From an uncultured Candidatus Binatia bacterium (GTDB lineage Bacteria > Desulfobacterota > Binatia > HRBIN30): a stretch of DNA of 43,581 nt. Position numbers and translations under genes: made by a program. Position 1 is the first letter of the stretch, and every line of letters begins with the position of its first letter. Positions 3,309-38,138 of this stretch are shown here, one piece after another. The stretch covers positions 1 through 43,581 of the forward strand of contig CAZGSN010000667.1 in NCBI GenBank assembly GCA_964528465.1, in the 5' to 3' direction. The notes under the pieces are model-generated. The model saw nothing but the letters and a program-made list of their open reading frames with translations, did no database searches and was not told where the DNA came from.

Positions 3309-3336
3309 TTTGGATAGGAAAATGCTGGCTTTCCAG

Positions 3337-3368: not shown

Positions 3369-3390
3369 CAAGTGGGCACGTTGTCTTGGA

Positions 3391-3463: not shown

Positions 3464-3514
3464 CTTTCAAGGCGGCTGACGTACGTCGGGCGGGTGCAAG
3501 ACGGTTCTGCGACA

Positions 3515-4897: not shown

Positions 4898-5261
4898 GGC
4901 GGCGCTGGTTAACAGCGGGCCGGAGGGAGCACAACGCAAGCGCGGAGCCGTGCCGCGGTGTCGGCAGTTGCCGTGCGCCTTTGATCTCTTGTGAAAAGTT
5001 AGCTTTGGCGATGAGATCGCTGACTGACTTAGCGTCATCCACGTGAATGCGCGTGGTGAAGAACTTCTCTAGGTGGCCCATTACGAGGAGTGGAATCAGC
5101 ATGAGCAAGACGGTGGTCGCGCCACTGGTCACATAGTGCCGGATGCCGAGAGTTGCGTGAGGAGGCAGGCCGATAGCGATGAAATACGACACCTCGTACG
5201 CATAGCCCCATATACCCATCGGGATTGCGAGCAAAAGAAGAGAGAGTGGTAGGCGCTTCAT
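4854..5261 (-). CDS. Hypothetical small membrane protein (2 predicted TM helices)
   Basis: Internal ATG 5261 of ORF 4854..5615 gives MKRLPLSLLLLAIPMGIWGYAYEVSYFIAIGL...TTVLLMLIPLLVMGHLEKFF. The 3' tail overlaps the M16 start by 44 nt and looks less protein-like. Confidence 0.35.
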   Translation of the reverse strand: MKRLPLSLLLLAIPMGIWGYAYEVSYFIAIGLPPHATLGIRHYVTSGATTVLLMLIPLLVMGHLEKFFTTRIHVDDAKSVSDLIAKANFSQEIKGARQLPTPRHGSALALCSLRPAVNQRRHVVSFACRDRPCSR

Positions 5262-9953: not shown

Positions 9954-12900
9954 AGGGGATGCGTAAGATGCGATGGTCGAGGTCGCTGACGGCAAGGTCA
10001 TCGTTGGCCACACTGTAGGCTACGGCCATCGGCGTCTCGAAGATGACGCCGGGGATGGTCTGCGATCGGATGGTGCGCAGGAGAGTACCGCTACGATCGT
10101 AGCCGCGAATCTCCTTCATGGTCGGTACCGTCACCCACAGTGTCCCCGCCTTGTCGACGGTGATGTGCGGCTCGGAGAATACTTTCGCTTCCCAACCGGA
10201 CACCGCGAACGAGCCCTGAAGCTGGCCGTCCCGCGAAAAGATCTGCACGCGAGCGTTGACGTTGTCGCAAACGAAAACGGTGCCGTCCTTGTCCACGGCA
10301 ATTCCCGTCGGCTCTTGGAACTTGCCCGGTGCCGTACCCTTGCCTCCCCACTCGGCTTCCTTCTCGCCGCGTGCCGACAGGCGCACGATGCGGTTGTTGC
10401 CGGTGTCGGCAACGAAGATGGATCCCTGGCTATCGACTGTGACACCGCGTGGCCCGTAGAAACCAAGCGCAGCCTCGCGCAGATACTTGCCTTCCTTGTC
10501 GAAGATCTGGATGCGCTGGTTCCAGGTATCGGCAACCACGACCTCGCCATTGGGTGCCACGGCAACATCACCCGGCTCATTGAACTGCCCGGGCAGCTCG
10601 CCTTTGCGGCCCCAGCCGCGCACGAACTTGAGATCCTTGTCCAACTCCTGGATGCGATGGTTGCCGAAGTCCGCGACCAGGATGTTGCCATCTGCCTTCA
10701 CGGCCACGCCGCGTGGCTGCTGTACTTGCCCCGGTGCATCCTGTGGCAGTGGTGCTTCCGCAGCTCCGGGAATGTCGGGAATCTCTTCGACCGTGGTGAG
10801 CGGCATGCCACCGGTAAACGTATCGTTGACGGCGAAGATGGTGACACCCGGGTTCTGGTACACAGGGGTCAGCAGGTCGGTCCACTCCCGGAAGCGCTCC
10901 AAATTGCCGCCCGCATAGGTGCGCCGTTCGAGGGCACCAACGAACACAAAGGCAACGTGGTAGCGCTGGAAAATGGAGCTGGCGATGTCCTTGCTCTCGG
11001 TGGTGTAGGCCAGTTGGATGTCGGCCTTGCGTTGATTGATCTGGTTCCACGGATGAGCGCGTTGGAACACATGGTACGACCACCCCAACACCGTCGGCAG
11101 ACCGGTGTTCATCGAGACGCGGGTGAACTCCTGATACGAATCGCCATGCGCTTCCATGAGCACCGGAATGCCACGCACGTTGCGGTTCAACCATTCATAG
11201 GCGGCAGCTTCGTCGGGGGCGCGCAGCGGCAAGTAGGCGCGGCCGTTGAGTGTCGGCCGTGGCGTTACCACGCGGTTGGTCTGCAAGATTCCGTATGCTG
11301 CCGTGCCGGCGGTGAACAGGCCGACGCCAACCACCACTACCATCGCCAACTGCCAGGCGCGCCGCAGCCACTTGGACAGCAGTGAGGCCTGCCACAGGGC
11401 TTGCGCGGTTACCGCCGCAGCCAGCGCGAACATGAACCAAGCCTCCAGGTAAAACTTGAAGATGGTGTTCATGCGGTCCCAGACGTAGACCAGGTCGGTA
11501 CCTGCCGTTACCGCAAAGGCAAACGTCGCGAAGGCCAGCGGCAAGCGCCAGCGGCGTTCCGTCTTGGGACTGAGGACGACCTGAAATCCTAGTAGGAAAA
11601 GAATCAACGCAAAGGCGCGGGTGGAAATGAACAGGCTCGCTGCCATGGCTGCCAGCCCGAGCACGGCAATGCCAATCCGCAGTGGACCAAGCGTGCCGTC
11701 GGCGCGGCGCAACTCGCGTACCCAGGAGGCAAACAGGAACGGCACCAAGGCACAGAAGAAGACGCCCCATATGGTGAGGAAATCCAGCGGTTGGACGAGC
11801 TTGTCCGGACCCAAAACCTCCCAACCGATGTTGCGCTCCGGCGGGTTGAAGTTTTGCCAGAAGGGCATGAACAGGAAGTACGCGCCGGCAGCGATGAGCA
11901 CGGTGGGGAACAAGACGCGCCCGAGCAGGCCGCCGATGAAACTAAAGAAGCCGGGATGCGATCCTTCGGTAAGCCACACCACGCCAAGCACGAACGGGAA
12001 GAAGAGGACGTAGGTCGGCGTGCTCCAGGCGTTGGTCACGGTGATGGTTCCAAGACACAACGACAGGAGGGCAAACACCGCCAAACGAGCCCCGGCGGGC
12101 ACGTACTCGTAACGGTCGAGGATCGTGTCGCGAATCCACAACACGGTGAGGGTGATGAAAGTCACGGTGATGGGCATCACCATCATGTGTGCGTGCAGGT
12201 CGGCGAACAGCAGGCTCCAGAACGGATACTCGTTGATGGTGTCGCGGATGACGCGCGAGGTCGCCCAGAAGTAATCGAAATTCATGGTCGGATGCGGCCC
12301 CATGAGTTCGCGCGGGCCAGAGAGGTTGCCGATCAAGGTCACGAACAACGCCGCAATGGCGCCGGTCGACCAGCGTTGGGTCAGCGCCGCCCCGGCAGCA
12401 AACGCCGCAACCGTGGTAAGTCCGCCGATCAAGCCGATGCCGATATTGAAGAGGTACCCGGTTTCAATGTTGAGCAGCTTGCCCATCGCCGCAATCGAGT
12501 AGTAGCCGAAGTAGGAGTACTGCAGCGGTGAGCCGGCAAACCACGGCTCCGGTGGCGGCAGGCTGGTGGCGCGCGTAATGGCGTTGAGGAAGGAGAAGTC
12601 CATGGGCTTCTCGCCCCAATAGATCTCCGGGTTGAAGGAGCGGATGGCAAGGAAGAACAAGAAGGCGCCCCAAAACACGATCTGGGTGGCCACCGCCTCG
12701 CTCACCGGTGTACGCTCGCGATCCGGGCGCCGCCAGGCGCGCACGCCACACAGGATCATGAAGCCAGCCACGAGCAACAGCGTGTCGCGCGTGAACTTGG
12801 CCATGTCGAGGCTAACGACGAGCCACGACAGGTAGGAGAACAACAGAATTCCCAGCGTCTTGGAGATGGCCAGCGTTCCCGGTCCGGGCAGGCGCCGCTT

Positions 12901-15172: not shown

Positions 15173-15385
15173 GACCGGCAGCGGGGATTGATGCACAGTC
15201 CCTCCGTCCCGTGCGCCTGACATCATCGCTGCCTGACGCTGCAGCGGACAGAGTCCGATGCCACCGAGAAGTCCTCCAACCTTGAAAATGAACCGCTACT
15301 CTTCCGCCATCAGTGTTGCTTCGATGCATTGCGCTCGTACCTTGCCTTAGCTCAATCGGCGGACTGTGATTCCCATATCCCCGAC

Positions 15386-17491
15386 TCACCGTTGGTAGAT
15401 CGTGGTTCCGCCCTGTTTGAAGGCAACCTCCAAAGAGCCGAACTTCTGCAGCCCCGCGGAGGGATACTCCTTACGCTCGACCTCGCCAACGATGACGTAC
15501 TTGACGCTGTGGGCATCGAGTAGGGAAGTAACTTCTTCCAGTGTCGTGGCGTTGTAGATGCGTTTGACCTCTTCCTGGCGTTTGCCGACATCGGGATGAT
15601 TGCTACGCCACAAGCCTTCATGGTTTCCCCAACCCATCAGGGTGGGTAGGCCGGTGTTGCTCGACATGCGTGCAAAGTACGAATACGGGTTGCCGGTCGC
15701 TTCCAAGATCACCGGAAGGCCCTGGACGTTGGCGCGCAGCCATTCCACGGCGGCAAAGTCGTCGCGATGATCGCGACGCATGTAGTCGTTGCCGTCGAGA
15801 GAGCGCGGGGCGAATGGATGCGTCAACCGCGTCACGGTAACCCCTACCGGATACACAGCCGCGGCCAGACATAGGGCGCCGACCAGCGTGCCGGCGGTGG
15901 TTCTTACGTTGCTCGGCAAGCCACGGTCGGTGAGCAAGCGCATCAAGCACCACGGTCCCGCAATGGAAAGCAAGAACCAGGCTTGCAGGTAGAGTTTGAA
16001 CACTGTGTTCATGCGGTAGAGGCGATCGCCGTAAGGGTCGCGGATGAACACCAATTCACACGCCAGCAAGGCGGCGCATCCGGCGACCACCACCAGCAGC
16101 GGCCCGCGGTCTTCTTCCTCGTCACTGCCGTAGGCGGCAACCAAGGCAGCGGTCAGTATCGCTAGGAGAATCGGGAAGACGGCGTTCCCGGCCATGAGGG
16201 CGATTACCACGGCCAATACGACCAGCCCCAACAAGAGCTGTCGTTGCTCCGGCTTTGCGGAGATGTGAGGGCCGACACGCAACATCAGATAGAGCGCCGG
16301 CGCGATCAACAGGCCACCGAACACGGTCATGAACTCTGCCAGAGAAGTGGTGGCGAACTTGAAACCGACGCCGCCGCCGGGGGCTTGGAAGTTGAGATAG
16401 AAAGGAAGGAACAGAACGTAGCTGCCGACCAGCGCCCCAACCACACCCAGTACAACGCCGATGCGCTCGCGCGTGAATAGTGGGGTGAGAGGTAGGTGCC
16501 GGTGCAGCAGTAAGAAGGTCGTCATCGCCCCCACCGGCAATTCCCAGGTGCTGATTGCCACCATGGCGCCGAGGACAAAGGTAATGACAAACCACGGCCA
16601 CAATCCTTTGTAAGAGCTGGTATCGCCGCGCTCGCGTTCGGGATCGAGGAGCAGTCCGAGCAGCAGGATCATCACCGGCATCACCTGGAAGTGCGGGTGC
16701 AGATCCCCATGAATGGCGGTGAAGTAGGGAAACTCGTTGATGGTGGAGTCGCCACCGACAATGCGCGTCGAGCGGAAGTAGTTGAATGCCGTGAGGCTGC
16801 CCGACTCGAGCAGTTGTAGAAAGCCATCGAGATTGCCGAACAAGATGCCCATGGCTCCGGTGAGCAGTGCAAACGAAAGCTTGCGTGTGAGCACCATGCC
16901 AACGGCGACGAGTTCGCTGAACACCAGTCCGCCGAGGGTTGCGACGCACAGGTTGTAAGCGATCGGCGCGGCGATTGCGGTCAAGCGCGCCAAGTTGGCC
17001 AGGATCAAGTATCCGAAGTAGTAGTAGTTGAAGACCTTGCCGGCCATCCACGGATCTTGCGGCGGCATCACCTCGGTACGAATCAAGGTGTTGAAGAAGG
17101 CAAAGTCCATGTACTTCTCTTGGTCGGTGATCTGCGGCAGCAGGGAACGTTGCCAAGCGAAGAAGGCAAAGCCGAGGGTCCACAGCACGTCTGTACGCAC
17201 GATGGTGCGCCAGCCATCGCTAGCCAGCCAAGGGAGCAACGCGTCGCGGCGGCGCAGCAGCAGCACGCCGTTGAGCCCAGCGAAAAAAAGCAGCGACAAC
17301 CACAAGGAAGACGAGTACCCAATCCCCAGGTGTCCGAGCAGCCAGGCATCGTAGGTGACGACCAGCAAGGCAACGATCTTGCCGAAGGCATAGCCGTAGT
17401 CGGCGCGCTTCGAGAAGAGAACACTGGTTAACGGAAGTGCAATGAGGCCCAAGCCCTCGAGCACCAACCACCACACGACAAGCTGGCCCAT
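15386..17491 (-). CDS. DUF2298 (Chlor_Arch_YYY-type) polytopic membrane protein, function unknown (GT-C-like)
   Basis: DQEKYMDFAFFNTLIRTEVMPPQDPWMAGKVFNYYYFGYLI, with the YYYFG motif at nt 17009-17029. It is highly hydrophobic throughout. The C-terminal soluble part LPVILEATGNPYSYFARMSSNTGLPTLMGWGNHE is paralogous to the central module of the 1598-aa protein. The start is ambiguous: ATG 17491 (MGQLVVWWLVLEGLG...) or TTG 17530 (track). Confidence 0.85.
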   Translation of the reverse strand: MGQLVVWWLVLEGLGLIALPLTSVLFSKRADYGYAFGKIVALLVVTYDAWLLGHLGIGYSSSLWLSLLFFAGLNGVLLLRRRDALLPWLASDGWRTIVRTDVLWTLGFAFFAWQRSLLPQITDQEKYMDFAFFNTLIRTEVMPPQDPWMAGKVFNYYYFGYLILANLARLTAIAAPIAYNLCVATLGGLVFSELVAVGMVLTRKLSFALLTGAMGILFGNLDGFLQLLESGSLTAFNYFRSTRIVGGDSTINEFPYFTAIHGDLHPHFQVMPVMILLLGLLLDPERERGDTSSYKGLWPWFVITFVLGAMVAISTWELPVGAMTTFLLLHRHLPLTPLFTRERIGVVLGVVGALVGSYVLFLPFYLNFQAPGGGVGFKFATTSLAEFMTVFGGLLIAPALYLMLRVGPHISAKPEQRQLLLGLVVLAVVIALMAGNAVFPILLAILTAALVAAYGSDEEEDRGPLLVVVAGCAALLACELVFIRDPYGDRLYRMNTVFKLYLQAWFLLSIAGPWCLMRLLTDRGLPSNVRTTAGTLVGALCLAAAVYPVGVTVTRLTHPFAPRSLDGNDYMRRDHRDDFAAVEWLRANVQGLPVILEATGNPYSYFARMSSNTGLPTLMGWGNHEGLWRSNHPDVGKRQEEVKRIYNATTLEEVTSLLDAHSVKYVIVGEVERKEYPSAGLQKFGSLEVAFKQGGTTIYQR

Positions 17492-17750
17492 TGGAGGCAG
17501 GGTTTTGGAACAATTCGGGCATGATTGCAACGACGCCGGCTTCGCACGCCAAATCGCTTGGGCGGGGAATCCGGCTCATGCGCCGCGGGGGCGCGGCGTC
17601 TCCATTGCTTGTAAATATTGATGAATCTGAGTTGGAGACGGGCCGCCCTCGGCCCGCGTCTGGTGTAGGAATGGTTTGGCGTGCAAAGCCCCCCGCTGCT
17701 CTAAATTTGCGCGAGCCGACAAGAATCGAAGCGTTTGTTTTACAGAGTGC

Positions 17751-19199: not shown

Positions 19200-19474
19200 C
19201 CTGCACCTTTGCTGTCCGCCGGGTCTGCGATCTATTCCGAGCTGGGTGGCTGATTGGCGCGAGACAGTTAGTGCCATCCGCCTCCGGCAGCAAGTGCCAC
19301 CTATGCGCAGGTGCGCGTCCCTCTTATCGATGAGACCCTACATCCGCGAGCGCCGGGCTGAGAGAAGGCTTCGCTACGTGATTGTTGCCGGTCCTGCTGC
19401 GTGTACTAGGCCGCCGCCGCGTGTCGCCATGCGACCGCATTGGCGCCTACCGCCAGCCAAGAGCCGCAAACGAC

Positions 19475-19517
19475 ATGCAGACAAGGTCTGCCGCGCGGCG
19501 GTGGAGCTTGTCTGCAT
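19475..19517. terminator. Candidate hairpin downstream of the giant minus-strand gene (weak terminator candidate)
   Basis: atgcagacaag (19475-19485) and cttgtctgcat (19507-19517) are perfect 11-bp inverted repeats with a 21-nt GC-rich loop. There is no clear U-tract on the minus strand, hence the low confidence. Confidence 0.25.
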
Positions 19518-19720
19518 TGCATCTCCCAGAAGCAACGCATCAATAACCTAGGCACATGGGCACATGGGAACCGAAGGCTGAGGCTCGACCTATTGAGTGC
19601 CACTCCACACTCGGTTGTCCGCGCAAGATGGTGCCCGAGGTGCGAGAACAATAGGCCTTGGGAGGCGGGGCTCATCCTCTGCCTTAACGAGAGGCTGCCA
19701 CCATGTTGTGACCCGCGGGC

Positions 19721-22700
19721 CTATCGAGCTGCGGCCTGGAATTCGGTTCGGTCGCTCTTCTTGGTGCTGGACGAATCGAAAACGCTCGACCAGCAGTCTT
19801 CGGAGGCACTACTGTGCAGTTGCACAACTACCGTGGGATTCTGGTCAAGGAGCTGCTCGTCATTCGATGGGACCGGTACTGGAAGGTTGGACCCTTTCCC
19901 TACAACCTTAAGCGAAGGACGGCCCGCCTCTCCGCCAGCAAGCACAACCCTGACTACGCCGCTCTCGTTGCCCCACGGATTCTTGTAGCGCCACCCCTTC
20001 GTCCCGAGAGTTTTCCAGCACGGTGTTGTGCCGCACATCTCGGGGGCAATGCGAAGAACCATGGCCAGCGAATACTGGGCCGGGTCTGCTTGTTCGTAGA
20101 GGCACAGCGCGTAGCTGCTTGCGCCAGTCACGGGATCGCCGAATGCTGCCTGACTGAGTGACGTTGTGCCCCGCTTCCAGCTCCATTCGAAGTTGCTTCT
20201 CGCGCCTTTGGATGTGACCTCTAGTGAGTTCCTTGCGGCGGTGTAAGTGCATTGCACCGGTGCAATCGGGCATTCAATGGCGAATCTTGGTGTTGCCGTG
20301 GGTGCCGGAGGCGGAGTTGGAGTGGTGGTCGGCACTTCAGTGGGTGTGGTCGTTTCTGAGGCCGAAGGAAGGCTTGTGCTGCTTAAGGTCGGTGTGGCGG
20401 TTGGCGTATCGGTTTGGGTGCTTGCTGGTGTCAGCGTCGGGGTCAATGTCTGCGTTGCGGTTAACGTCAGAGTTGTAGTCGGTAGTGGGGTTTGAAGTGC
20501 GGTTGCAAAGTGCAGTAGGGGCGCCTTGTAGACCAGAACCCGCGTCCAATCCCAGTCGGCTAGGTAGAGGTTGCCGTCGCGATCGAAATACGAAACGGCT
20601 GCGAACGACACGTAGTCTCCAAGGACTAGTTGTGGTTGGTAGTTCTGGTCCTTGTTCAAGTAGACCATGGGAAAGCGCGGGCCAATGTAAGGGTTCGCCC
20701 CGCCTAGAATCATTCTTCCGCTTGAGTCGAACGCCGGGGCACGTACAGGCGCTGCCACGTCGTGAGCGGCCAGCGGGTATCGGGGATTGTTTAAGGCTGT
20801 TGCCAGCGTGAAGTCCTGTGGGCCTCCGTTGCCATAGATGCTGTCGGCTGGGATATTCAGCAGTACCTGGGTAGGGTGATCTGGAATCGTGCCGGTATTC
20901 CAGCGCAAGATCTGCGAATAGCCGCCATCCTGGCCACCCGTGGCATTCGTTTGGACGAAGAGGTTTCCAGCCGAGTCGAGCAGGGGTAGATTCTCGGCTC
21001 CCAACGTGTCTCGGTCGTAGGCCCACGTCCCACGCCCCTGATTCACATAATACGATTGGAGATCCTGCTGGCCAAGAATGGTGTCGACATACGCGGGTTG
21101 CCCTGGGTCCTCTAACCCATCAATGTTGGTGGCGCGCAATATTCTTGCTGGACCTTCACCCTCGGAGAACCAGACTTGGTCCCCTGAGCCCACAGGGAAG
21201 AACCGAAAAAACGTCAATGGCGGGATCGTAGGCCCGCTTCCTGGAAGGGTCCGGATGCTACCGGTGGCATCTTTGTATTTTGAAATGGAGATACTCTTAA
21301 TTGGGGCGGAGTTGGTGGTGAGTGGTGCGGCGAAGAGGTGTAGGTGGGTGGCGTCGTTTCCGACAACGATCCAAATACGGCCGCTATCGTCACCGGCAAT
21401 GCGATAACCCGGATGCCCTGCAGCCGAGGGGGACTGCCACATCCCGTCGGGCAAAGGAGAAATCTCATTTCCTTGAGTAACCCGACGGTAGTCGTTCCAA
21501 AAGCGGACTCCGTCGTTGTCTGAGACGAGCAACTGATCACCAACGATCGTGATGCCGCTGACACCCCAGAGCGAATCTTTTGTGACCGCACCGACTCCTA
21601 GGAACGCTGGCGTTCCGGGCGATCCTGATGGTGGGGTTTCGCCTGGGGCAAGCCGGAATAATCCGGTGTTGCTCCATGCGTCTACGGTGAACAGGTCACC
21701 CTCGTGACTGACGGTAAGGCCACGAAATTGTCCAGAGCGCAGCTTGGTCAACATCTGTTGGCTGTGGACGTCAAACAGCGCTTGCGTTGCGGAACTCATC
21801 TCAACCCAGATGCGGCCCGGGTAGCGTGGGTCCAGTGCAATCTGGCTGGCTGAACCGTAGTCTAGATCATAGGTAATGAAGTCCAGCGACTGGTGCGGGT
21901 TTGCTGCGCCGGGTTGCGGGTTGGCGAAGCGCCAAACTCCGAAGCTGCCTGAAACGTAGAGGTCCCCTTGTGCATCCACCTGCACCGAAGTCGGATGCCA
22001 CAGCCCGGTCAGCGCCAAGTCGGCGGTCTTCTCGACGCCGCCAGTGCTCGCATTTCGCGGAAAGCGCAGGACGCGGCTATTGGACTCGGCAGAATCGACC
22101 ACCCACAAATTGCCTGATCCATCTATTGCGACGGAGGTGGGGAAACAAAGCGAAGCCATTGTCGGCAGTCCACCTCGGTTGCACTTGTTTGCCTCGAAGT
22201 TGTCTTGTCCCCAGACTTCAGCAGCCGCCGTGCCGTTGCTTGGATCAAAGGGGTCTCGATACATGAGGACGCGATGATTCCACTCGTCGGGAACGTAGAG
22301 GTTATGATCAGCGTCCACCGCGTTCTGGATGTGAATGACCGATTCGCCGATGCTGATGGAATCTGGGCTCAATAGGCAGAGAGTGCTCGCGTTGGGTGCG
22401 GGATAATTTGGGAATGTTTGCCGGGTGCCATCGCCGTTGCAGGCGCTGAAACCCGTATCGCTCGGCTGGCCGAGAACAAAGGCCGGGGCAATCTCTCCCG
22501 GCGTCAAGTCGCACCGCTCCCCGGGTTCACAATCCGAATCAATACTGCAGATCTCCTCGGAGAACCGGCAGCGACCGACACCCTCAAGCCCAAGAATCCG
22601 ATTGTGGTTGCCATCCACAAGAAAGACATGTGTTCGACCGGTGGCGGCGTAATCGACGGTCACGCCACCGCCATATTGCGTGTGGTATGGGTCCGTTCCT

Positions 22701-24868
22701 AAAAATGTGTTCTCTGCAAAGCCTGCCTGTCCCAGCACTGCATCTGCCCACAAGTCCCCCGGCTGGCCGCGAACGATCTCATCGGCATGATGGTAGTCTG
22801 CTAGCGTGCAGGGCCCGATAATGTTGGAGGTTTGCGTTCCAGACGAGGTTTGCGCCAAAACGCGGTAGTAATAGCCAGTAGCCGATTGCAGGTGATATAT
22901 GGGGCTCAAACTCGCTGTGCTGCGTCGCTGAAACCGTCGCCAGTCATCGAGCGGCCATCCCGTGTCGCCCAATCCGTTGACCGTTGCGTCCGTCGTGTAA
23001 CTGACCAAGGCCGAGCTGTTGAAGAACGGGGTCGTGTCACGTTGGACAACATACCCGGCGGCTGTGGTTACGCTGTCCCATGCCATGGCGATCTGGATGC
23101 CCGTATGGTCGACGTAGCGTAGAGCGAAATCTGACCGACTACCCAAGGGGGTGGAAATAGCGGTCAATGTCGGAGTCCGGGTGGGCGTCGGCGTTCCGGT
23201 TGCTGATGGTGTCGATGTGGGCTGCCCGGTGTAGGTGGGGACCGGGCTCAATGTTGGTGTTCGTGTCCGTGTTGGCGCGCGAGTGGCCGTCAGCGTCGGA
23301 GTGGGGTTGCCCACGGTATAATGGCTCCAGACTTGCGATGCGCTAAGGGCGGTTGGGTAGAATGCTAACTCGTCCATGTGGCCGTAGAATGGACTCCCCC
23401 CACCGCTGCCGGCGATGCCTGCCTGCCAATAGGTGCCGCTTATGGGTGTGGTCACCAGCGCCGATACGCCTTCTTCCATGCCGTTGATGTACAGGCGAAT
23501 TCGGCCGTTGGCTTCGAGTGTGGCGACCACGTGATACGTTGTGTCAGGCATGACGGTAGTGGTGCCAACGACGCTCCCGGTGACCGTACCATTGACAATA
23601 AACTGAAACTTGCTCGATGAGTTAATGAGCAATACATGAACCCAATTGTCAGTTGCATCTAGGCGACCAATCAGTGCTCTTGGCGCGACGGAGCCGGTTG
23701 GACGGAACCAGCCTTCGATCGTATAGCTCTGGGTGCTTGCCGTAACTGGGGCGGTTACGCCGGATCCGACCATAAAGGCAGAGTGTCCTGGATCCCCAGG
23801 GGGCAGTCCTGTTTGGCCGAAGACAACGTCGTCAGGCGGGCATGCCGGGGGGCACCAACCGGCTGTGTAGGATCCATGCAAGCCCAGAGGGCTCGCATCG
23901 ACGGCTGTGCGACCTGCCAGTTCCTCCAGCTTGTAATACGGACCGGCTCCGTCACTTAGCACTACAACGGAATAAACCCCGTTCGGTGGCGTAGAGACTG
24001 AGGTCGCCGAGGCTGTGGGAGTAGGCTGCCCTGTGTGTGTTGGCAGGGGGCTCGACGTCGGCGTCGCGGTATTCGTCGGTACGGGTGTCTGTGTCGAGTT
24101 GGGTGCAGAGTTTCCTGCGGCGTAGTGTGCCGATATCTGTCCTGCGGTGAGCGCGGTTGAGTAGAAGGCCAGCGCGTCCATGTTGCCATAAAACGGGCTT
24201 CCCCCGTCGCTGCTGGCAAGTCCTGCCTGCCAATTGGTGCCAGAAAGAGGTGCACCCACTAGAGTGGACGTGCCTTCTTCAACGCCATTGATGTAGAGAT
24301 GAATACGTCCACTGGCCTCGAGCGTAGCTGCTACGTGGTACGTCGTGTCAGCGATGACCGTGGTGCTGCTTACGACGCTGCTGCCAACCGTACCCTTCAC
24401 TGTGTATTGGAACTTGCCTGCCGAGTTGGTCAGCAGCGCATGAACCCAAGTGTCCGTTGCGTCGTGGCGAGCGATTAGTGCTCTGGGGGCAACGGAGCCG
24501 GTGAGACGAAACCAGCCCTCAATGGTGTAGCTCGCGGTATCGGCACGCGGCGGTACGACCACACCGGAACCAACCATGAAGACGGAGGAGCCCGGATCGC
24601 CCAAGAGGATCCCTGCCTCGCCGAAGATAACGTCGTCCGGTGGGCATGCCGGAGGACACCAGCCCGCGGTATAGGCTCCGTGGAGATTAAGGGGGCTTGC
24701 ATCCACCGCCGTTCGCCCGGTCTGCTCGTCGAGGCGGTAGTAGGGCGCTGCACCGTCGCTAAGCACCACGCTCGAATAGTCCGCGTAGGATCGACATGCT
24801 ATCAACAGAACTAAAAAGCCGACAATAAAGACGAATTTACTTGAAAGTGTGTCCCCTTGGCTCGCCAT
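19721..24868 (-). CDS. Giant secreted or lipid-anchored surface protein: 2x LamG/ConA-like lectin domains, FN3-like domain, large NHL-like beta-propeller region, Cys-containing C-terminal domain, three Pro/Thr-rich linkers
   Basis: ATG 24868 gives MASQGDTLSSKFVFIVGFLVLLIACRSYADY, a signal peptide with a possible lipobox LIAC. The track ORF uses TTG 24901. The LamG-like repeats end in ...FYGNMDALAFYSTALTAGQISAHY and ...FYGHMDELAFYPTALSASQVWSHY. The FN3-like segment reads IAMAWDSVTTAAGYVVQRDT...YYYRVLAQT. There are at least 10 blade-like motifs, including VDGNHNRILGL, DEWNHRVLMYRDPF, SNSRVLRFPRN and DWDWTRVLVYKAPL. PT linkers include TPTPTRTPTLTA and TLTPTLTPASTQTDTPTATPT. Confidence 0.85.
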   Translation of the reverse strand: MASQGDTLSSKFVFIVGFLVLLIACRSYADYSSVVLSDGAAPYYRLDEQTGRTAVDASPLNLHGAYTAGWCPPACPPDDVIFGEAGILLGDPGSSVFMVGSGVVVPPRADTASYTIEGWFRLTGSVAPRALIARHDATDTWVHALLTNSAGKFQYTVKGTVGSSVVSSTTVIADTTYHVAATLEASGRIHLYINGVEEGTSTLVGAPLSGTNWQAGLASSDGGSPFYGNMDALAFYSTALTAGQISAHYAAGNSAPNSTQTPVPTNTATPTSSPLPTHTGQPTPTASATSVSTPPNGVYSVVVLSDGAGPYYKLEELAGRTAVDASPLGLHGSYTAGWCPPACPPDDVVFGQTGLPPGDPGHSAFMVGSGVTAPVTASTQSYTIEGWFRPTGSVAPRALIGRLDATDNWVHVLLINSSSKFQFIVNGTVTGSVVGTTTVMPDTTYHVVATLEANGRIRLYINGMEEGVSALVTTPISGTYWQAGIAGSGGGSPFYGHMDELAFYPTALSASQVWSHYTVGNPTPTLTATRAPTRTRTPTLSPVPTYTGQPTSTPSATGTPTPTRTPTLTAISTPLGSRSDFALRYVDHTGIQIAMAWDSVTTAAGYVVQRDTTPFFNSSALVSYTTDATVNGLGDTGWPLDDWRRFQRRSTASLSPIYHLQSATGYYYRVLAQTSSGTQTSNIIGPCTLADYHHADEIVRGQPGDLWADAVLGQAGFAENTFLGTDPYHTQYGGGVTVDYAATGRTHVFLVDGNHNRILGLEGVGRCRFSEEICSIDSDCEPGERCDLTPGEIAPAFVLGQPSDTGFSACNGDGTRQTFPNYPAPNASTLCLLSPDSISIGESVIHIQNAVDADHNLYVPDEWNHRVLMYRDPFDPSNGTAAAEVWGQDNFEANKCNRGGLPTMASLCFPTSVAIDGSGNLWVVDSAESNSRVLRFPRNASTGGVEKTADLALTGLWHPTSVQVDAQGDLYVSGSFGVWRFANPQPGAANPHQSLDFITYDLDYGSASQIALDPRYPGRIWVEMSSATQALFDVHSQQMLTKLRSGQFRGLTVSHEGDLFTVDAWSNTGLFRLAPGETPPSGSPGTPAFLGVGAVTKDSLWGVSGITIVGDQLLVSDNDGVRFWNDYRRVTQGNEISPLPDGMWQSPSAAGHPGYRIAGDDSGRIWIVVGNDATHLHLFAAPLTTNSAPIKSISISKYKDATGSIRTLPGSGPTIPPLTFFRFFPVGSGDQVWFSEGEGPARILRATNIDGLEDPGQPAYVDTILGQQDLQSYYVNQGRGTWAYDRDTLGAENLPLLDSAGNLFVQTNATGGQDGGYSQILRWNTGTIPDHPTQVLLNIPADSIYGNGGPQDFTLATALNNPRYPLAAHDVAAPVRAPAFDSSGRMILGGANPYIGPRFPMVYLNKDQNYQPQLVLGDYVSFAAVSYFDRDGNLYLADWDWTRVLVYKAPLLHFATALQTPLPTTTLTLTATQTLTPTLTPASTQTDTPTATPTLSSTSLPSASETTTPTEVPTTTPTPPPAPTATPRFAIECPIAPVQCTYTAARNSLEVTSKGARSNFEWSWKRGTTSLSQAAFGDPVTGASSYALCLYEQADPAQYSLAMVLRIAPEMCGTTPCWKTLGTKGWRYKNPWGNESGVVRVVLAGGEAGRPSLKVVGKGSNLPVPVPSNDEQLLDQNPTVVVQLHSSASEDCWSSVFDSSSTKKSDRTEFQAAAR
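23306..24778 (-). repeat. Intragenic tandem duplication of a ~223-aa LamG-like module (aa 42-264 and 310-532 in track-ORF numbering from TTG 24901) separated by a Pro/Thr linker
   Basis: Copy 1 (nt 24110-24778) and copy 2 (nt 23306-23974) align colinearly. Shared strings include VLSDGA.PYY.L.E..GRTAVDASPL.LHG.YTAGWCPPACPPDDV.FG, SYTIEGWFR.TGSVAPRALI.R.DATD.WVH.LL.NS and DTTYHV.ATLEA.GRI.LYING.EEG. Confidence 0.85.
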
Positions 24869-25327
24869 GGCGTCTATCGGTATCGCGGAAAATGTTTCCA
24901 ATCAACTGAATTCATGCATTTCGCAATGAGGGATCGTTGGGCGTAGCGGTATGGCGAGGGGTAATGTTGGTTAGTCTAGACCGATTCGCGCTGTGCGCGC
25001 GCTTCGAGGGGTGCACGCGAGGCCCGGTGGTCATGGGGAACGCCCGAAGCGCGGCGCCTGTGTCTCGCCAGACAAGCTGGGGACGGACTGGTTCCTTACG
25101 CGCCCCGGTCGCCAGGCCAGCTCAATCTGGAAACATTTCGAAGGATAGGCTCCTGGCACGCGGGTTGACTTGCTTCGGCGGTGCGGCGTACATGGCCGCC
25201 GCAGATGGAGCGAGTCTGCGTATTGCTAGGTCGATGTACATTGCGAATCCGTGACCAGAGCCTCCGGGGTAGCCGGTTGATCGCAGCACCACGGCTAGGG
25301 CATTCCTGACGCGATAAATTGTCACTA

Positions 25328-28300
25328 ATGGAGAAGGCGTGGCATTGTCCGGCGGGCGCACGGATGATCTTGGCGATTACGTCGGTCAGCGTGGTGACGG
25401 CGCCTCTTGTCCTTGTGGGCGTCAACCAAGCGACGCGCCATGAGAGGGTCCTAGGTGCTCTCGATTTCTTTTTCGAACAACTGCGCCACTCGGGGAAGGC
25501 GCTGATTGCTTGGTCTGTGCACTATGGGGAGTGGGTCGGCGTTGGGGTGACTGCTCTTTGTCTCGCTGCGGTAATTGCCTCTGTCCGGCAACGCAAATCC
25601 GATAGCGCAGCTATCGTCTCGATGGCGACGGCCATCAGTTTTCTTACCTGGGGTGAACTCTCGCTTCTTGCCGATGCCGTTTCGCGTGGATGTCTGTTCT
25701 ACGCGATTGGTATTTCCGCCGCTCTGATATGGGGGAGGCGATTGCCTTTGCCGCCTCGACATTCGGTCGAGCTTGCGCCCGCCACCTCGCAGGCCTCGAA
25801 GACTGCATCCAATTTTCGCATGGTGCGGACCGCCGAGTGGCCCGCTCTTGTGTTTCTTTTTCTACTGGCCGCCGTGACGCGCCTCTACGCCCTCACCGAG
25901 CTTCCGCATGAATACGAGAGCGAGATGATCATCAGCATGCTTTCGTCGCGTACCCTCGTAGGTCTATTGCGCTACATCCCGGAAGGCATTGTCGCCAATA
26001 CCAATGGTATCATGCACCTCCTGCCGCAGTGGGTGAGTTTCCAGGTTCTTGGGACCTCGGTGTTCTCGCTGCGTTTCGTGTCCGTTGCATGCGGGCTTGT
26101 GTGTATTGCGCTCTTCTATTGCATCGTCCGCCGTGTGGGCGGAGTGTCCATCGCCGTCGTTTCAACGTTTCTCTTTGTGACAGCACCTGAGCAACTGTTT
26201 TGGTCGCGGCAAGAGAATACTCCGTTCCAGTTTGTGACTCTGCTGGCGTTGATTGTCGCTAGTGCCGGGCTGCGTATGCAGGAGCGGTTCAGCTTGCGCA
26301 GCATGGTTGTTGCCAGTGCCACCATGCCGCTGGCGCGACTGTTTTATGGTCCGGCGATGGTCATGTTGCTCTACCCGCCGGTACTATACGCTCACGGCTT
26401 GCTCTTTTCGCGAGCAGGGCGCCGCTCGCTGCTTTACGGAGTCCCTCTCCTTGCTGCTGGTGTTGGCGCCTGGATCGCCAGTCTCTCTACTGCCGCCAGC
26501 CTAATTTCCGGGCAGCCATGGCACTTCATCAACCCGACCTTATCTGCTGGAGCCGCGGTGTGGAGAGGCGAAGGGACGTTCCGCGAGGCAAGTCTGCCGG
26601 AGTTGCTGAGGTTGCAAGCGGCCAATCTCGCAAAGAACACCGCTGCGGTGGCACGTGCGATGACGTACCAAGGCAGCTTCAGCCCGTGGTACCGGCGTGC
26701 GGACGAGTCGACCCACCCGACCATCATCAACGCTGCAATGACAGTCCTTCTGACTCTGGGACTTGCCTATCTTCTTGGCCAGTTCTCTGAGCCCCGCGCT
26801 TTCGCGCTGTTGGTGTGGGTCGCCCTGGCAATGCTGCCAGCTTTGCTCAGCGTCGATCCAGTGCCACGGCGGATGGTCGGCGCCTTCCCCGCGTTCTACG
26901 CCATCATCGCCTTTACCGTTGGCGCGATTCTGCACCAGTTTTGTGTGCTGGGTGCTTCGCGAATAGTCTGGTGCGCGAAAGTGTCGTCGGCGCTGGCCCT
27001 ATTGCTGATCGCATGGGCCAATTTGGCGTCCTATTTTCTCTTGCCAATGCGCCCGACGCATTTGGAGCCCCTACTTGCAGCGACAAAATCGATTTTTCAG
27101 GACACCGATGGGGTTTACCACAATCTTGGGGCGGATTGGGCACTGCTATTGGCGTTCGGCCACGGGGATGATCTGTTCGGCAAAGAAGACCCTCCTTGTT
27201 ACGAGGGCGTGCGGTCTCGGGATTGGCTTCACACGGCGCTCGGCGTGAGCTGTCCTTTCGAATCACCAGCGATGACATACTCGTTGTCGGCGGAACAAAT
27301 CGAGGGTCTGCGGGCAAGATACGATCCGCAGAAAATCAGCTTCTTACTGGAAGACCGCCCGGCGACAACGAAGGATGTTGCCCTCCTTCGCGCGTTGTTC
27401 CCAGACAGTCCCTTTGTGGAGCTGCCACGCGCTGGTACTGCCCTTATGTCGTTGCACTCCCTGCAAGTGGATCGCAGTAACGTCGACGCTCTTCGTGCGC
27501 CAACGTTGCACCCAAGCGCATCGGAAGCGCAACCGATGGATCTGGCACAGAGTGTCATGCGCGATACGAAGCTAGTCGTTGGTCCGTCCACGGACGATAG
27601 CAGCGTGCGTATTGAGGGGAGTCTTCTGATTGATTTCTCAGGCTGGTTTCATCTGCGAGTCGAGCCTTCCTGTGCAGCAGCCGAGATAAGTGTGGATGGT
27701 GAGGTTGTGCGACCGCAGAATTGGCTTCCCCTCACTGGCGGCGCCCATGAGATGGTTGTCCGGCTTCCTTCGGCTTCCGCTTGCGTCTTGCCGATTCAAG
27801 TTGCCGGTGAGCGTCATGTGGATGCTGGTGGCTCACGAGCCGTGTCGACACCGTTTGTCGCGACACGAGTTGCCTCGTTGCCGGAAGCCCGTGCCATGCC
27901 CGTCATTCGGAGCCGTGGATACCAGGAGGTACTGTTGCCGCCTCTCCCCGAGGGCGTCCTTTCCGATTTTGCGGTTGATGAGCAGGGCGGACTAACTCTG
28001 CTTCTTAGAAATTCGCATGGCTATCGCATCGAGCGCCTCGACGCAGGTGGCAATCCCTCGGGAGGTTGGGCCCTGTCGCTTGATCCGCTCGGCATATCGC
28101 GTGCGCCCGATGGCACCTTGTTCGTCCCCTATGCGGGTGATGCTGTCGACGAATTCAGCGCGGACGGGACGCTCTTGTCGCGATGGAAAACCCCTTGGGT
28201 ACGATCGGCCACGCTTGGCCACCTCGCGGATGGCTCGATTCTTAGTGCGCTCCCTGGTGGTAAAATTGCTCTGCTCGACCGTAACGGAAGGGAAATCGGC

Positions 28301-28759
28301 ACATGGGTCGAGTTCGAAGGTGAAGTCAAATCGTTCTTCGAGCCATGGTCTGCGGGTGCGAACAGGAAGAACGACATCTTGATCATCCAATCCAACGGCA
28401 TAGCGCTACAGCTTCACACCCCGCCGCACCGCTTCGAGCCGCACCTGCGGCGGTCGTTTCGTATCGACTTTTTCGAAGCCTCGGCGCCTGCCAGTGGTTG
28501 GACGTTCGACGAAGCTCGTGACCTTATCATCGTTCCGGACCCGGCGAGCCGGAACGTCCTAACGTTCACGCTCGATGGAGCCGCAGTCATGGCTATCGAC
28601 CCGGAGCGCGACCTGGGAGCAATAAGCCCAGGCGTTGTCCGTCGAGTCGCCGCTAGCGCCAACGCCTTGTACATGCTCGACGGCAGGCAGCAGCTTCGCA
28701 AATTGGTGAGCCTCGACCGGGCTGGGCATGCACTTTCCAGCGAAGAGAACTTGAAATAA
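25328..28759 (+). CDS. Polytopic GT-C-fold (GT39/ArnT-like) membrane protein with periplasmic PA14-like module and degenerate beta-propeller C-terminus
   Basis: The hydrophobic N-terminal ~640 aa carry the first-loop motif LAAVTRLYALTELPHEYESEM. The PA14-like segment VRIEGSLLIDFSGWFHLRVEPSCAAAEISVDGEVVRPQNWLPLTGGAHEMVVRL lies at about nt 27600-27810. Propeller-like repeats (PDGTLFVPYAGDAVDEFSADGTLLSRW, ADGSILSALPGGKIALLDRNGREIGTW) lie at about nt 28020-28700. Possible starts: ATG 25328, TTG 25319 (track) or ATG 25364. Confidence 0.75.
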   Translation: MEKAWHCPAGARMILAITSVSVVTAPLVLVGVNQATRHERVLGALDFFFEQLRHSGKALIAWSVHYGEWVGVGVTALCLAAVIASVRQRKSDSAAIVSMATAISFLTWGELSLLADAVSRGCLFYAIGISAALIWGRRLPLPPRHSVELAPATSQASKTASNFRMVRTAEWPALVFLFLLAAVTRLYALTELPHEYESEMIISMLSSRTLVGLLRYIPEGIVANTNGIMHLLPQWVSFQVLGTSVFSLRFVSVACGLVCIALFYCIVRRVGGVSIAVVSTFLFVTAPEQLFWSRQENTPFQFVTLLALIVASAGLRMQERFSLRSMVVASATMPLARLFYGPAMVMLLYPPVLYAHGLLFSRAGRRSLLYGVPLLAAGVGAWIASLSTAASLISGQPWHFINPTLSAGAAVWRGEGTFREASLPELLRLQAANLAKNTAAVARAMTYQGSFSPWYRRADESTHPTIINAAMTVLLTLGLAYLLGQFSEPRAFALLVWVALAMLPALLSVDPVPRRMVGAFPAFYAIIAFTVGAILHQFCVLGASRIVWCAKVSSALALLLIAWANLASYFLLPMRPTHLEPLLAATKSIFQDTDGVYHNLGADWALLLAFGHGDDLFGKEDPPCYEGVRSRDWLHTALGVSCPFESPAMTYSLSAEQIEGLRARYDPQKISFLLEDRPATTKDVALLRALFPDSPFVELPRAGTALMSLHSLQVDRSNVDALRAPTLHPSASEAQPMDLAQSVMRDTKLVVGPSTDDSSVRIEGSLLIDFSGWFHLRVEPSCAAAEISVDGEVVRPQNWLPLTGGAHEMVVRLPSASACVLPIQVAGERHVDAGGSRAVSTPFVATRVASLPEARAMPVIRSRGYQEVLLPPLPEGVLSDFAVDEQGGLTLLLRNSHGYRIERLDAGGNPSGGWALSLDPLGISRAPDGTLFVPYAGDAVDEFSADGTLLSRWKTPWVRSATLGHLADGSILSALPGGKIALLDRNGREIGTWVEFEGEVKSFFEPWSAGANRKNDILIIQSNGIALQLHTPPHRFEPHLRRSFRIDFFEASAPASGWTFDEARDLIIVPDPASRNVLTFTLDGAAVMAIDPERDLGAISPGVVRRVAASANALYMLDGRQQLRKLVSLDRAGHALSSEENLK

Positions 28760-31775: not shown

Positions 31776-34700
31776 CTAGAACGCTAGAGGGAAGACCAGG
31801 TTGACCAAGAAGAAGTGGCGGTTGTAGGGGTCGGCCCAGAAGCCACCGGCGCTGGTGGTCAGCACGGCAATCTCTTCGATGGGGAAGTTGAGCGTCCCTT
31901 CGATGCCACCGGCGATACGGCTTCCCTCGGCGTCTTCGAAGAAGTCCGAGTCGACACCCGAGATCCACTGGCCTCCCACTTTGCCCGTCACCAAGAAAGT
32001 GGCGTCATCCAATGTGTCCGGGAAGAACGGGCCAGTGAAATCGAGGCGCAGCAAAGCCTGCACAAACGCGTCGGGGCTGAAATAGCCGCCGCCGGTGCGG
32101 CGCTCGTTGACGGCGGCGATGAGGTCCGCATCGGAGCTGGAAGAGCCACGCACGGGCTCGCTCAAATCCTTGTCGTAGTGGAAGAAAGCAAGCTCGACGC
32201 CAGGGCGAATCTGGTTGTCGTAGTTGCGCAGCTCAAATGTCCGCCCTACTCCGAGGAAGCCGTCAAACTTCTCGTTGTCCGGGATGCGAATGCCTTGCAA
32301 GGTGCTGTAAGCGAGTTCGAGCACACCATCGATTAGGGCTGGCGTGGTGAAGCCGATGCGTCCGCCGAAGCGGTCTTGAATCACCTTACCGATGAAGGTG
32401 TCGCTGTTGCCGGAGACCAGCTTCTGCCCGCGGAAGCTCAGCATCGATTCCATTACGGGTTGGCGCTCGTAGAACGGAGTCAGCGTCAACCATGGAGCTG
32501 GCTTGAGATCGAGTTGAGCAAAGCCTGTGAGATAGGGGCGACGCGGGAAGCCCCACGGGGTTCCGCCAACACCACCACTCAGGACAATGGCGTCTGTCCC
32601 CAGCGCCAAGCCGTTCAATGTCGCCATGCCGGAGACCCCGGCGTCGCGCTTGTCGCCGTTGTCGACCAAGGTTGGTTCGGCAGTCAGCCGGAAGCGCGTA
32701 TTGAGCGCCGCAGGCAGATCAACGAACATTGGAAAGCGATAAATCGCAAACTGGTCGGCCCGCCAGTCGGCCACGGCACTGAGGAAGTCGTAGCGAAAGC
32801 CAAGCCCCACTTTGACGGCTTGCTTTCTCGCCAAGTCACGAGCCAAGCGCTCCGCGCGCAGGCGTGCTTCCGGGCTCAAGGCTTTGACCGGCGGCGCCTC
32901 CACCTCTTCTGGGATCGTCTCGTACTGAATGGCCGAAAGATCGGAATAGCGCGGCACACCCTGTGTCGATGGATCATGCCTGCGTTCCCATTCCAGTCGC
33001 ACCGGCGGCAGCGAGTCTTCATAAACAACCGGAGCCGGAACCTGCGAGCGCGCTTGACGGCGTGCGGGCGTCGCCAAGCGTGGCACGGGCGTGGTCTCGA
33101 TGCGCGGTTCTTGCCAACCCCGTGGTGTGGGGACGCGCGTCGGCACCGCGGTAGCTTTCCCGCTACGCCCCTTGGCACGCACATCCCGCATGATGCGTTC
33201 GAAGCTTGGGAGGTCTTCCGCGATCTGAGCTTCCGCAACATCCCTCTCACGGTGGGCAGCCCAAGCCCGTAGAGCCTCAACAGCCCCGCCAGAGAACATC
33301 GCCGCTGCGGCTGGCGCAGCATCGTTCATGGAGTCCGTGGCGGCGGCGGCAAGCGGCTGCGAGGTCAACCGCGCCGTGGCGCGACTTCCCTGCCAGCGCC
33401 GTGGTGGCAGTGCATCGACCGGAGCCGGCTTGGCGCGTAATGTCCCTTGCGGCAACTTGAGCGGTGGCAGAATCGAATCGACGACAGCGCCACTGCTGGC
33501 GTAGCCCGAGCCCGGCTGCGGCGGCAGGCCGTAGACACCCACCCCGCCGCGACTCCCCGCCTCCTCGAGAATTGCCGAAGCATCTCCATCGCGCCCCATG
33601 TCGTGGTACATTTCAGCCAAAGCAAGGCCCAGCTCAGGATCTTTACTGGCCTCGTACTGGTCTTCCAAAATATCGAGTGCCTCACGCGTGTTACCGCTGC
33701 CGCGCAGGGCGTACGCCAGGCCTAGGCGCACGTCCCCATCTTCCGGCGCCAAGGCCTGTGCGCGAGAGAAGAACTGCTCGGCCTCCACGTACTGCTTGGT
33801 TTGCAGATAGAGGAAGCCAATGGATTTCAACGTGTCCACGTCGTTCGGGTCGCTGCGATAGTCTTGCGCCAAGAGAAGGTAGACCTGATCCAAGCGCCCC
33901 TCGCGCGTCAGCCGCTCGCGGTCGATCCGGTCCTGCGCGCGGCGCACGTCGCGAGCCAGCTCCGCCGCCGTTTGCGCTCCGAGTGTACGCTGGTCATTCG
34001 CAATGGCCTGGCGTGCATCGGCATAGCGACCGAGCTTCGAAAGTGCGCGAATACGCGCTGCCTGTAGGCGTGCGGAAGAACGGTTCAATGCCAAACCCTG
34101 CTCGGCATAGGTCAGGGCAAGCGTGTCGGCACCAGTTTCCAAGGTGACTTCCGAGAGCCCTGCCCACACATCGGGATCGCGCGGATTGCGCTCGCGCAAC
34201 TGCTCCATGAGATCGCGCGCATCGGCAAAGCGTCCGGCTTCGATGAGCTGACGGGCGTATTCCATATCGCGATGGAAGGCGATGCGGTTCCAGGTTTCCG
34301 CCGACACCTCGTACCCAGGGATGGTATCCAATCGGCGATAGGTGGCCTCAGCAGCTTGCCAGTCCCCCACGCCTTCGTAGGCTCCGGCGATCCCTTGCAA
34401 AGAGCCCGGATCATCGGGATTGGCAGCAAGCACGGCACGGTGCGTGTCGATGGCATCCTGGAACTGCCCCTGCTTGGAATAGACACCGGCAATCACCTTG
34501 AGGGAATCCGCGTCTTCCGGATCCAGGGCCAGAGCCTCGCGCGCGGCAAAGAACGCTTCGTTCGTGCGTCCGGAATCAAGTAAGGCGCCAGCCTGGGCTC
34601 GGCGCAGATTGGCACGCTCGCGATTCGCCGCCTCCGGGTGCGCGGCGCTGTAAGCGGTGAGTGCCTGTTCGGCTTCGCTGTAACGCTTCATCGCCGTCAG

Positions 34701-38126: not shown

Positions 38127-38138
38127 CACCTCCCTCCA

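Follow-up and report, generated by a model that had tools for sequence, protein, structure and literature searches.

A predicted secreted LamG and tandem-propeller protein of a Candidatus Binatia bacterium, its recurrent C-terminal domain and its GT-C glycosyltransferase neighbours

Introduction

Bacterial secreted proteins that join a signal peptide to LamG-like jelly rolls (Laminin_G_3), NHL-like propellers and Pro/Thr linkers, and that evolve by modular shuffling, are the closest described counterparts of the protein discussed here, which is encoded on the minus strand of contig CAZGSN010000667.1 of an uncultured Candidatus Binatia bacterium, amid five genes for glycosyltransferases of the GT-C type (the window is the whole stretch of 43,581 nucleotides that was analysed). 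Taken as a whole, the protein is of an ordinary kind, namely a large modular secreted binding protein. It differs from the described LamG/NHL proteins in that its tandem core of 760 residues is a distinct conserved unit in which one blade alone reaches the NHL threshold, and the order of the domains varies even among its close homologues. What is new are two large families that are unnamed in the libraries searched: the tandem-propeller core of approximately 760 residues and, above all, a cargo-independent C-terminal domain, here called 'type A', which is found on thousands of unrelated secreted proteins and for which a confident predicted fold, with no solved relative, was obtained.

The type A domain is best compared with the C-terminal domain of the type IX secretion system (T9SS; Por_Secre_tail), with dockerin and with SLH modules. 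Like them, it is C-terminal and cargo-independent, often follows a low-complexity linker and is present in many paralogous carriers per genome; furthermore, it takes the slot that the T9SS domain and dockerin fill in homologues of the same core. Unlike them, it is larger (approx. 175 residues) and has six conserved Cys residues, and it matches none of them in the sequence families of Pfam and NCBIfam or in the structures of the PDB; a role like that of the T9SS domain is suggested by position and cargo diversity.

The linkers of the protein and the genes around it recall, in turn, the O-mannosylation systems of Actinobacteria and eukaryotes (PMT, family GT39), with which they share an exported protein whose unstructured linkers are rich in Thr and Pro, and adjacent GT-C transferases. 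The mycobacterial enzyme (MtPMT) favours Pro-rich Ser/Thr peptides within unstructured regions (PMC12331936), and GT-C enzymes of the PMT_2 type decorate glycans and lipids too (PMC11127046). The ectodomains of the GT-C proteins of the window (NHL, PA14, propeller) are comparable in logic with the combinations of GT-C with MIR in PMT and with TPR in TMTC (PMC7801869). In contrast with the PMT systems, the transferases are here of the PMT_2/DUF2298 type without demonstrable GT39 signatures, the host is a diderm outside Actinobacteria and no more than half of the close homologues show the association with GT-C genes. Literature searches on Binatota glycosyltransferases, DUF2298 and Binatia surface proteins returned nothing relevant.

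The C-terminal domain

The protein ends in a Cys-containing domain of which an earlier note on this DNA, made from the sequence by eye, had recognized the presence without being able to assign it to a family. The domain was located at residues 1528–1715, and the failure to name it agrees with the outcome of the profile searches: NCBIfam gave no match at E ≤ 1 for residues 1528–1715, Pfam gave nothing recurrent among 31 members of the family, and a sequence search of the PDB with the C-terminal profile gave no match. Nor do residues 1528–1715 match the profiles of known C-terminal sorting or anchor families (PF18962/TIGR04183 for the T9SS domain, dockerin, SLH and PEP-CTERM). A word-index homologue search with the domain found no relatives either; the family came to light only when 1.84 billion representatives (clusters at 50% identity) were searched exhaustively with HMMER, which yielded 4523 clusters at E ≤ 1e-3, 1576 of them at E ≤ 1e-10.

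Of the 149 best matches, 130 have the end of the domain within five residues of the protein C-terminus; the N-terminus is hydrophobic in 70 of the 89 full-length carriers, and a Pro/Thr-rich stretch is found just upstream of it in approximately 40% of carriers. The cargo is diverse, with 43 different Pfam passenger families across 76 members, including subtilase (Peptidase_S8), phytase, glucose/sorbosone dehydrogenase (GSDH) and Ice_binding-like domains, as well as Kelch, SBBP, DUF5122, LamG, TSP3 and beta-helix modules. When genomes were searched with a six-sequence alignment, carriers were found mainly in Candidatus Binatia, 'delta proteobacterium' metagenome-assembled genomes (MAGs), Polyangiaceae and Thermodesulfobacteriota, with several copies per genome.

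Members are recognizable from the motifs CPxxPxxxC, WKWxKG, FGDP, YxLCxYD, GGxCGxKPCW, AGK, LPLP, VQL and CW. The studied sequence aligns end to end with 30 of them at 32–45% identity, and all six Cys residues are kept. The two Cys residues of the GGxC...KPC pair are lost together, members without one being also without the other, which is what a disulfide between them would predict. The C-terminal beta-sandwich is probably held by three disulfides. Modelling of the domain followed by a Foldseek search, as the earlier note had advised, produced a confident all-beta fold (predicted local distance difference test, pLDDT, 96; predicted template modelling score, pTM, 0.92) with nothing similar in the PDB or BFVD at E ≤ 1e-3, the TM-score being at most 0.30.

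Comparison of orthologues shows that the C-terminal slot is exchangeable. It is filled by a type A domain in P0029, by a dockerin-like segment in P0024 and by another Cys-containing module in P0025 and P0002, while P0003, P0026, P0027 and P0028 carry a domain of approximately 170 residues, 'type B', with the motifs LDPxGDE, GW..N, GQCG and a terminal CR. In an hhalign comparison (probability 81%, E 1.3e-5), type B and type A come out as probable remote homologues. More distant homologues of the core end in a T9SS C-terminal domain or in SLH modules. From its position, its independence of cargo and its interchange with known anchoring or sorting modules, we infer that the type A domain may act as a tag for holding the protein at the cell surface or sorting it there. 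Weighing against this proposal, a carbohydrate-binding or oligomerization module would equally be C-terminal and cargo-independent, and a carbohydrate module that binds the cell envelope satisfies the same description as a sorting tag. If the tail does act in sorting or retention, its sequence would be a simple means of listing the proteins that Binatia-like bacteria secrete or display, and it would point to an unknown display pathway.

The propeller core

The core lies upstream of the third Pro/Thr linker and is a conserved module without a family model of its own. With residues 585–1455 as the query, 196 homologues were found, many of them covering 86–100% of it; seven are 51–54% identical across the full query, P0002 is a further close homologue that was found with the full-length protein as the query, and dozens more are approximately 30% identical over residues 700–1450. 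The accessory modules of core homologues include LamG, SLH, LRR, CARDB, dockerin, TPR and the T9SS C-terminal domain, and because they differ each time, the region of approximately 760 residues is best seen as a conserved and shuffled unit. In the close subfamily, the propeller comes straight after the signal peptide; LamG modules are C-terminal in P0002 and P0029, on both sides in P0003, and N-terminal in the studied protein. Among species-representative genomes, the closest relative of the core is in a Candidatus Binatia MAG (53% identity), and further relatives are found in Planctomycetota, Anaerolineales, many Dehalococcoidia (Chloroflexota), Acidobacteriota and several CPR lineages.

An AlphaFold model of residues 585–1455, built from a 30-sequence alignment, has a pLDDT of 82.8 and a pTM of 0.84, and contains approximately 50 strands past residue 125; approximately 12 blades in two propellers are estimated from the strand list of the model alone. 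The propeller of about 780 residues and at least 10 NHL-like blades that had been read from the sequence is retained in the model, with slightly different dimensions, but Pfam detects a single NHL repeat (PF01436) above threshold (27.4 bits versus a cut-off of 20), the other blades being too diverged for the profile. The Cys-rich insert with four Cys residues, CRFSEEICSIDSDCEPGERC, is present in the first propeller where it had been noticed before, at residues 767–786, and is kept in close homologues. Among the invariant motifs of the core are GD[LF]WAD and ACNGDG.

The top PDB matches of the model in Foldseek are tandem double propellers, namely AIP1, EML1, UTP proteins, COPI beta-prime and the periplasmic sensor BT4663, and the NHL-derived design Pizza6 is matched as well (TMt 0.78). 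The core shares with the tandem scaffolds (BT4663 of the Bacteroides hybrid two-component sensors, and the TAPE domains of eukaryotic AIP1 and EML1) the arrangement of two consecutive propellers as one rigid unit; with 8–12% identity and TM-scores of 0.2–0.37, this is likeness at the level of the fold rather than family membership.

Gene layout, LamG modules and linkers

The gene is a single unbroken open reading frame (ORF), and the form of 1715 residues has the same sequence as the NCBI-derived protein P0001. The order of its parts is signal peptide, LamG 1, Pro/Thr linker 1, LamG 2, Pro/Thr linker 2, FN3-like region, propeller, Pro/Thr linker 3 and C-terminal domain (table 1). Pfam, the comparison with homologues and the structure models show that the length and architecture given in the earlier note were essentially right. 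No enzyme family that would explain the whole protein emerged from Pfam, NCBIfam or Foldseek, and the sequence features of the N-terminus are those of a Sec-type signal.

Both LamG-like domains were recovered by Pfam as two stretches matching Laminin_G_3 (PF13385; E 3e-43, 147.9 bits versus a cut-off of 27.6). The two copies (residues 30–252 and 298–520) are 72% identical over 222 residues without a gap and are thus a recent tandem duplication. The three Pro/Thr linkers were located by composition, the third of them spanning 73 residues. Stretches of this kind are common spacers in secreted proteins generally. The FN3-like region that had been proposed between the second linker and the propeller finds weak support in the model, in which residues 585–685 form a sandwich of six to seven strands with moderate confidence (pLDDT about 50–84), but not in Pfam, where fn3 (PF00041) has no match at E ≤ 1 in the studied protein.

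GT-C genes of the locus and their conservation

Five genes of the window encode proteins of the GT-C type, with 5–18 transmembrane segments each by hydropathy count. Matches to PMT_2 (PF13231) range from E 4.7e-10 to 4e-16, that of gene 29072–31534 being weak, and the two DUF2298 matches have E-values of 1e-93 and 7e-87. In genes 25319–28759 and 29072–31534, PMT_2 is the sole PMT-type match in Pfam. Gene 9943–14739 encodes two GT-C modules (PMT_2, then DUF2298) with approximately 18 predicted transmembrane segments, and its product ends in a canonical NHL propeller of six blades; it is the only gene with a match to PF02366 (PMT), which is partial (profile positions 86–201 of 245). The NHL parts of genes 9943–14739 and 7311–10013 share 48% identity, and the two ORFs overlap by approximately 70 nucleotides. 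When the four neighbours with PMT_2 were searched against the PDB, their membrane domains found no solved PMT, ArnT or other GT-C sequence, the NHL parts alone being matched. Thus, of the 'GT39-like' neighbours claimed before, five PMT_2/DUF2298 GT-C genes remain but their membership of GT39 is not demonstrable; given this lack of a solved relative and the one partial match to PF02366, the label 'PMT_2-type GT-C' is used here instead.

The conservation of this neighbourhood was followed in eight independent contexts of close homologues (at least about 50% identical, the studied window included). A PMT_2 gene adjoins in four of them, namely the window, L001, L004 and L006/L007, and no such gene adjoins in L003, L111/L112, L113 and L114. 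In both L001 and L006, an orthologue of gene 29072–31534, with 34–35% identity over approximately 680 residues, is the divergent gene beside the core homologue, and a very close orthologue of the same gene lies approximately 4 kb from a core homologue in a Binatia contig (L059). This recurrent pairing is a concrete candidate for protein O-glycosylation outside Actinobacteria.

The wider propeller family gives a different picture. With an iterative GT-C hidden Markov model (HMM) of our own, which misses some Pfam-annotated PMT_2 genes and therefore sets a lower bound on GT-C counts, a GT-C gene was found within 10 kb in six of 79 genome loci, no more than in control loci, and GT-C density was 7 per Mb over all 90 core loci versus 16 per Mb in control loci. 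A linkage with GT-C genes for the whole propeller family was therefore dropped. In three loci of Dehalococcoidia (L041, L046 and L058), a GT-C gene of the 7311 type is divergent from a distant core gene and lies approximately 0.6–1.1 kb upstream of it, which hints that the pairing arises repeatedly though not generally. The possibility that the LamG and propeller modules of the studied protein are close paralogues of the modules fused to GT-C proteins, as expected from domain shuffling, was also considered and dropped, the similarity in BLAST being marginal.

Some related loci are richer in genes than the window. L006 holds two core paralogues, 10001–12688 (895 residues) and 15344–19948 (1534 residues), approximately 2.7 kb apart and flanking a LamG-like gene of 724 residues, together with PMT_2, LamG, sulfotransferase, sulfatase and methyltransferase genes, which suggests an expandable envelope or glycoconjugate island. 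Near close homologues of the studied gene, and often with a class I methyltransferase, there is also a membrane protein of 548–559 residues, with approximately eight predicted transmembrane segments and no Pfam match (L111 5395–7041, L113 6188–7846, L006 20890–22569); its copies are 74–80% identical, and no homologue of it was found in the window.

Table 1. Position of the features of the protein and of selected neighbouring genes in the window.
Feature	Position	Strand	Residues	Basis and remarks
Whole gene	19721..24868	(-)		1715 aa + stop, counted from ATG at 24868
Alternative start TTG	24901	(-)		ORF 19721..24901, would give 1726 aa
Predicted Sec signal peptide	24782..24868	(-)	1-29	sequence features and homologue N-termini
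LamG module 1 (Laminin_G_3, ConA-like jelly roll)	24113..24781	(-)	30-252	Pfam and pairwise comparison
Pro/Thr linker 1	23972..24112	(-)	253-299	P+T 22/47
LamG module 2	23309..23971	(-)	about 300-520	Pfam and pairwise comparison
Pro/Thr linker 2	23120..23308	(-)	521-583	P+T 32/63
FN3-like beta-sandwich	22784..23116	(-)	585-695	weak; in close homologues only
Conserved tandem beta-propeller core	20507..22783	(-)	696-1454	approx. 12 NHL-like blades; homologues and model
Cys-rich insert, four Cys, in first propeller	22511..22570	(-)	767-786	sequence given in the text
Pro/Thr linker 3	20288..20506	(-)	1455-1527	P+T 44/73
C-terminal 'type A' domain	19724..20287	(-)	1528-1715	all-beta, six Cys, about 175-188 aa
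GT-C PMT_2 + NHL	7311..10013	(-)		Pfam
GT-C PMT_2 + DUF2298 + NHL, 1598 aa	9943..14739	(-)		Pfam; partial PF02366
GT-C DUF2298	15386..17530	(-)		Pfam
GT-C (PMT_2), 1146 aa, degenerate propeller-like C-terminus	25319..28759	(+)		divergent neighbour; Pfam 40.3 bits
GT-C (weak PMT_2) + PA14, 820 aa	29072..31534	(+)		Pfam 21.2 bits versus cut-off 26.1
TPR protein, 2117 aa, BcsC-type C-terminal outer-membrane barrel	31776..38129	(-)		PF05420, E 1e-13

Proposed function and alternative readings

With moderate confidence, the protein is regarded as a binding protein of modular build that a Binatia-like diderm exports by the Sec route and that is extracellular or bound to the cell surface. An exact 39-mer of the window had no match among species-representative genomes; judged from the best relatives, the host is most likely Candidatus Binatia. 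Having left the cell by Sec, the protein would sit extracellularly or at the surface, where the two recently duplicated LamG modules and the tandem propeller would be the working parts, binding ligands, probably glycans, rather than catalysing a reaction. The three Pro/Thr stretches would serve as extended spacers between modules and are candidate targets for O-glycosylation by the neighbouring, periplasm-facing GT-C transferases, while the C-terminal domain would be the cargo-independent tag for retention or sorting at the cell surface.

Several parts of this proposal have competitors. At the N-terminus, the short, polar n-region MASQGDTLSSK, with one Lys, and the 13-residue hydrophobic stretch that follows, FVFIVGFLVLLIA, suggest export by the Sec route, and the stretch is closed by LIAC25, which conforms to the lipobox pattern [LVI][ASTVI][GAS]C, as had been pointed out. 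The protein may thus be a lipoprotein, cut by signal peptidase (SPase) II before Cys25 and anchored to the membrane by the lipidated Cys, with the LamG modules beside the anchor, and a lipobox-like VVSC is also present in P0029. However, a lipobox Cys is not conserved among the close homologues whose N-termini were compared; most of them have SPase-I-type ends just before the first domain (...AAA↓DF, ...LAV↓DF, ...LAA↓EF). The studied protein has such an A-x-A-type site itself (SYA29↓DY), four residues past LIAC25, which is paralleled by GWA↓DY in P0003, and just these four residues would separate a lipid anchor from the first folded domain. Because the close homologues end in A-x-A-type sites without a conserved Cys, cleavage by SPase I is more likely, and lipidation, despite the intact motif, is the less probable outcome. 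As to the propeller, the NHL/SGL-type six-bladed propellers include enzymes such as PAL, SMP-30/gluconolactonase and Vgb lyase, and the many invariant Asp, Asn and Arg positions in the core alignment could be those of a lyase, lactonase or hydrolase, for which the LamG and C-terminal modules would be substrate-binding accessories. But the invariant residues sit in the repeated blade motif D..N.R[VI]L.F, and are as such structural, and the best structural matches are scaffolding, non-enzymatic tandem propellers; neither Pfam nor NCBIfam matched the protein to an enzyme family. An enzymatic assignment, for which the structure search likewise gave no family, was thus rejected and is considered highly improbable.

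For the relation of the protein to the surrounding GT-C genes, the role of a dedicated substrate and that of a glycan-binding partner account for the data about equally well. According to the former, which had been put forward in the earlier note, neighbouring PMT-type O-mannosyltransferases would add hexoses to Ser/Thr residues of the linkers during or after Sec export. The gene is flanked by five GT-C genes; a PMT_2 gene recurs next to it in half of the close-homologue contexts, in two of which the orthologue of gene 29072–31534 is the divergent neighbour; a small GT2 gene, which could be a polyprenyl-phosphate-sugar synthase, lies beside a PMT_2-LamG gene in L001; and MtPMT has the appropriate preference for Pro-rich Ser/Thr in unstructured segments (PMC12331936). 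Set against this, the neighbours match the broad PMT_2 model and no solved PMT or ArnT, with PF02366 partial in one gene; the other half of the close homologues have equally long Pro/Thr linkers without a nearby GT-C gene; the broad propeller family has no GT-C enrichment (six of 79 loci); and such linkers are met as mere spacers in many secreted proteins. GT-C transferases of this type act on glycans too (PMC11127046). Thus, the link with O-mannosylation is partly supported, by a recurrent but not general gene neighbourhood. Taking into account the preference of PMT for Pro-rich Ser/Thr and the recurrence of GT-C neighbours, tempered by the lack of general synteny, a substrate role is a reasonable working hypothesis for this subfamily, and O-glycosylation of the linkers by the adjacent GT-C enzymes is plausible from the sequences, though a function as dedicated O-mannosylation substrate is judged to be only a tentative possibility. 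Alternatively, the protein, as a lectin-propeller standing free in the periplasm or at the surface, might bind in trans the glycan that the enzymes of the locus use as acceptor or make as product, as the NHL, PA14 and LamG modules fused to GT-C proteins would do in cis, with export of the glycan through the BcsC-like protein. Four of the five GT-C genes of the window have C-terminal extracytoplasmic modules (two six-blade NHL propellers, one degenerate propeller, one PA14), a PMT_2-LamG fusion is present in L001 and a separate LamG gene beside the PMT_2 gene in L006, the window also contains the giant TPR/BcsC_C gene, and genes for sulfotransferases and methyltransferases are found repeatedly in related loci. 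However, the LamG and propeller modules of the protein are not, by BLAST, close relatives of the GT-C-fused ones, the ORFs of the window that were scanned with Pfam include no polysaccharide synthase gene, half of the close homologues are without GT-C neighbours and the C-terminal tag, being cargo-independent, speaks for a general route of export or display and not for a locus-specific complex. A partnership in trans is judged rather unlikely.

Returning to the surface-binding protein with a C-terminal tag, a bolder extension would combine both aspects: through the type A domain, thousands of unrelated cargo proteins would be recognized or attached by an undescribed display or secretion route of Binatia and related 'deltaproteobacterial' or Myxococcota-like diderms, the domain being a functional counterpart of the T9SS C-terminal domain with type B as a sister tag, and the GT-C enzymes of this locus that have propeller or PA14 ectodomains would O-glycosylate the Pro/Thr linkers of such cargo. 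This combination is regarded as speculative and doubtful. If true, the O-glycosylation of linkers by these GT-C enzymes would mean that protein glycosylation of the PMT kind also occurs in an uncultured Gram-negative phylum.

Other genes of the window

The TPR protein, which consists almost wholly of TPR repeats ahead of its BcsC-type barrel, marks a diderm host and possibly glycan export across the outer membrane; no synthase gene for such export was seen in the window. At the edge of the window, gene 38966–43285 on the plus strand encodes a DUF6079/AAA protein of 1439 residues with a partial match to the PADLOC BrxC/PglY models (E 1e-17), and may belong to a BREX-like defence system or be left over from one. 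The minus-strand genes at 1899–5038 form a tandem pair of M16 (insulinase-type) peptidases, typical of a two-subunit processing peptidase, with no evident link to the studied protein. Directly downstream of the studied gene and on the same minus strand, gene 17751–19277 encodes a protein of 508 residues with an N-terminal SEC-C zinc motif and no further recognizable domain.

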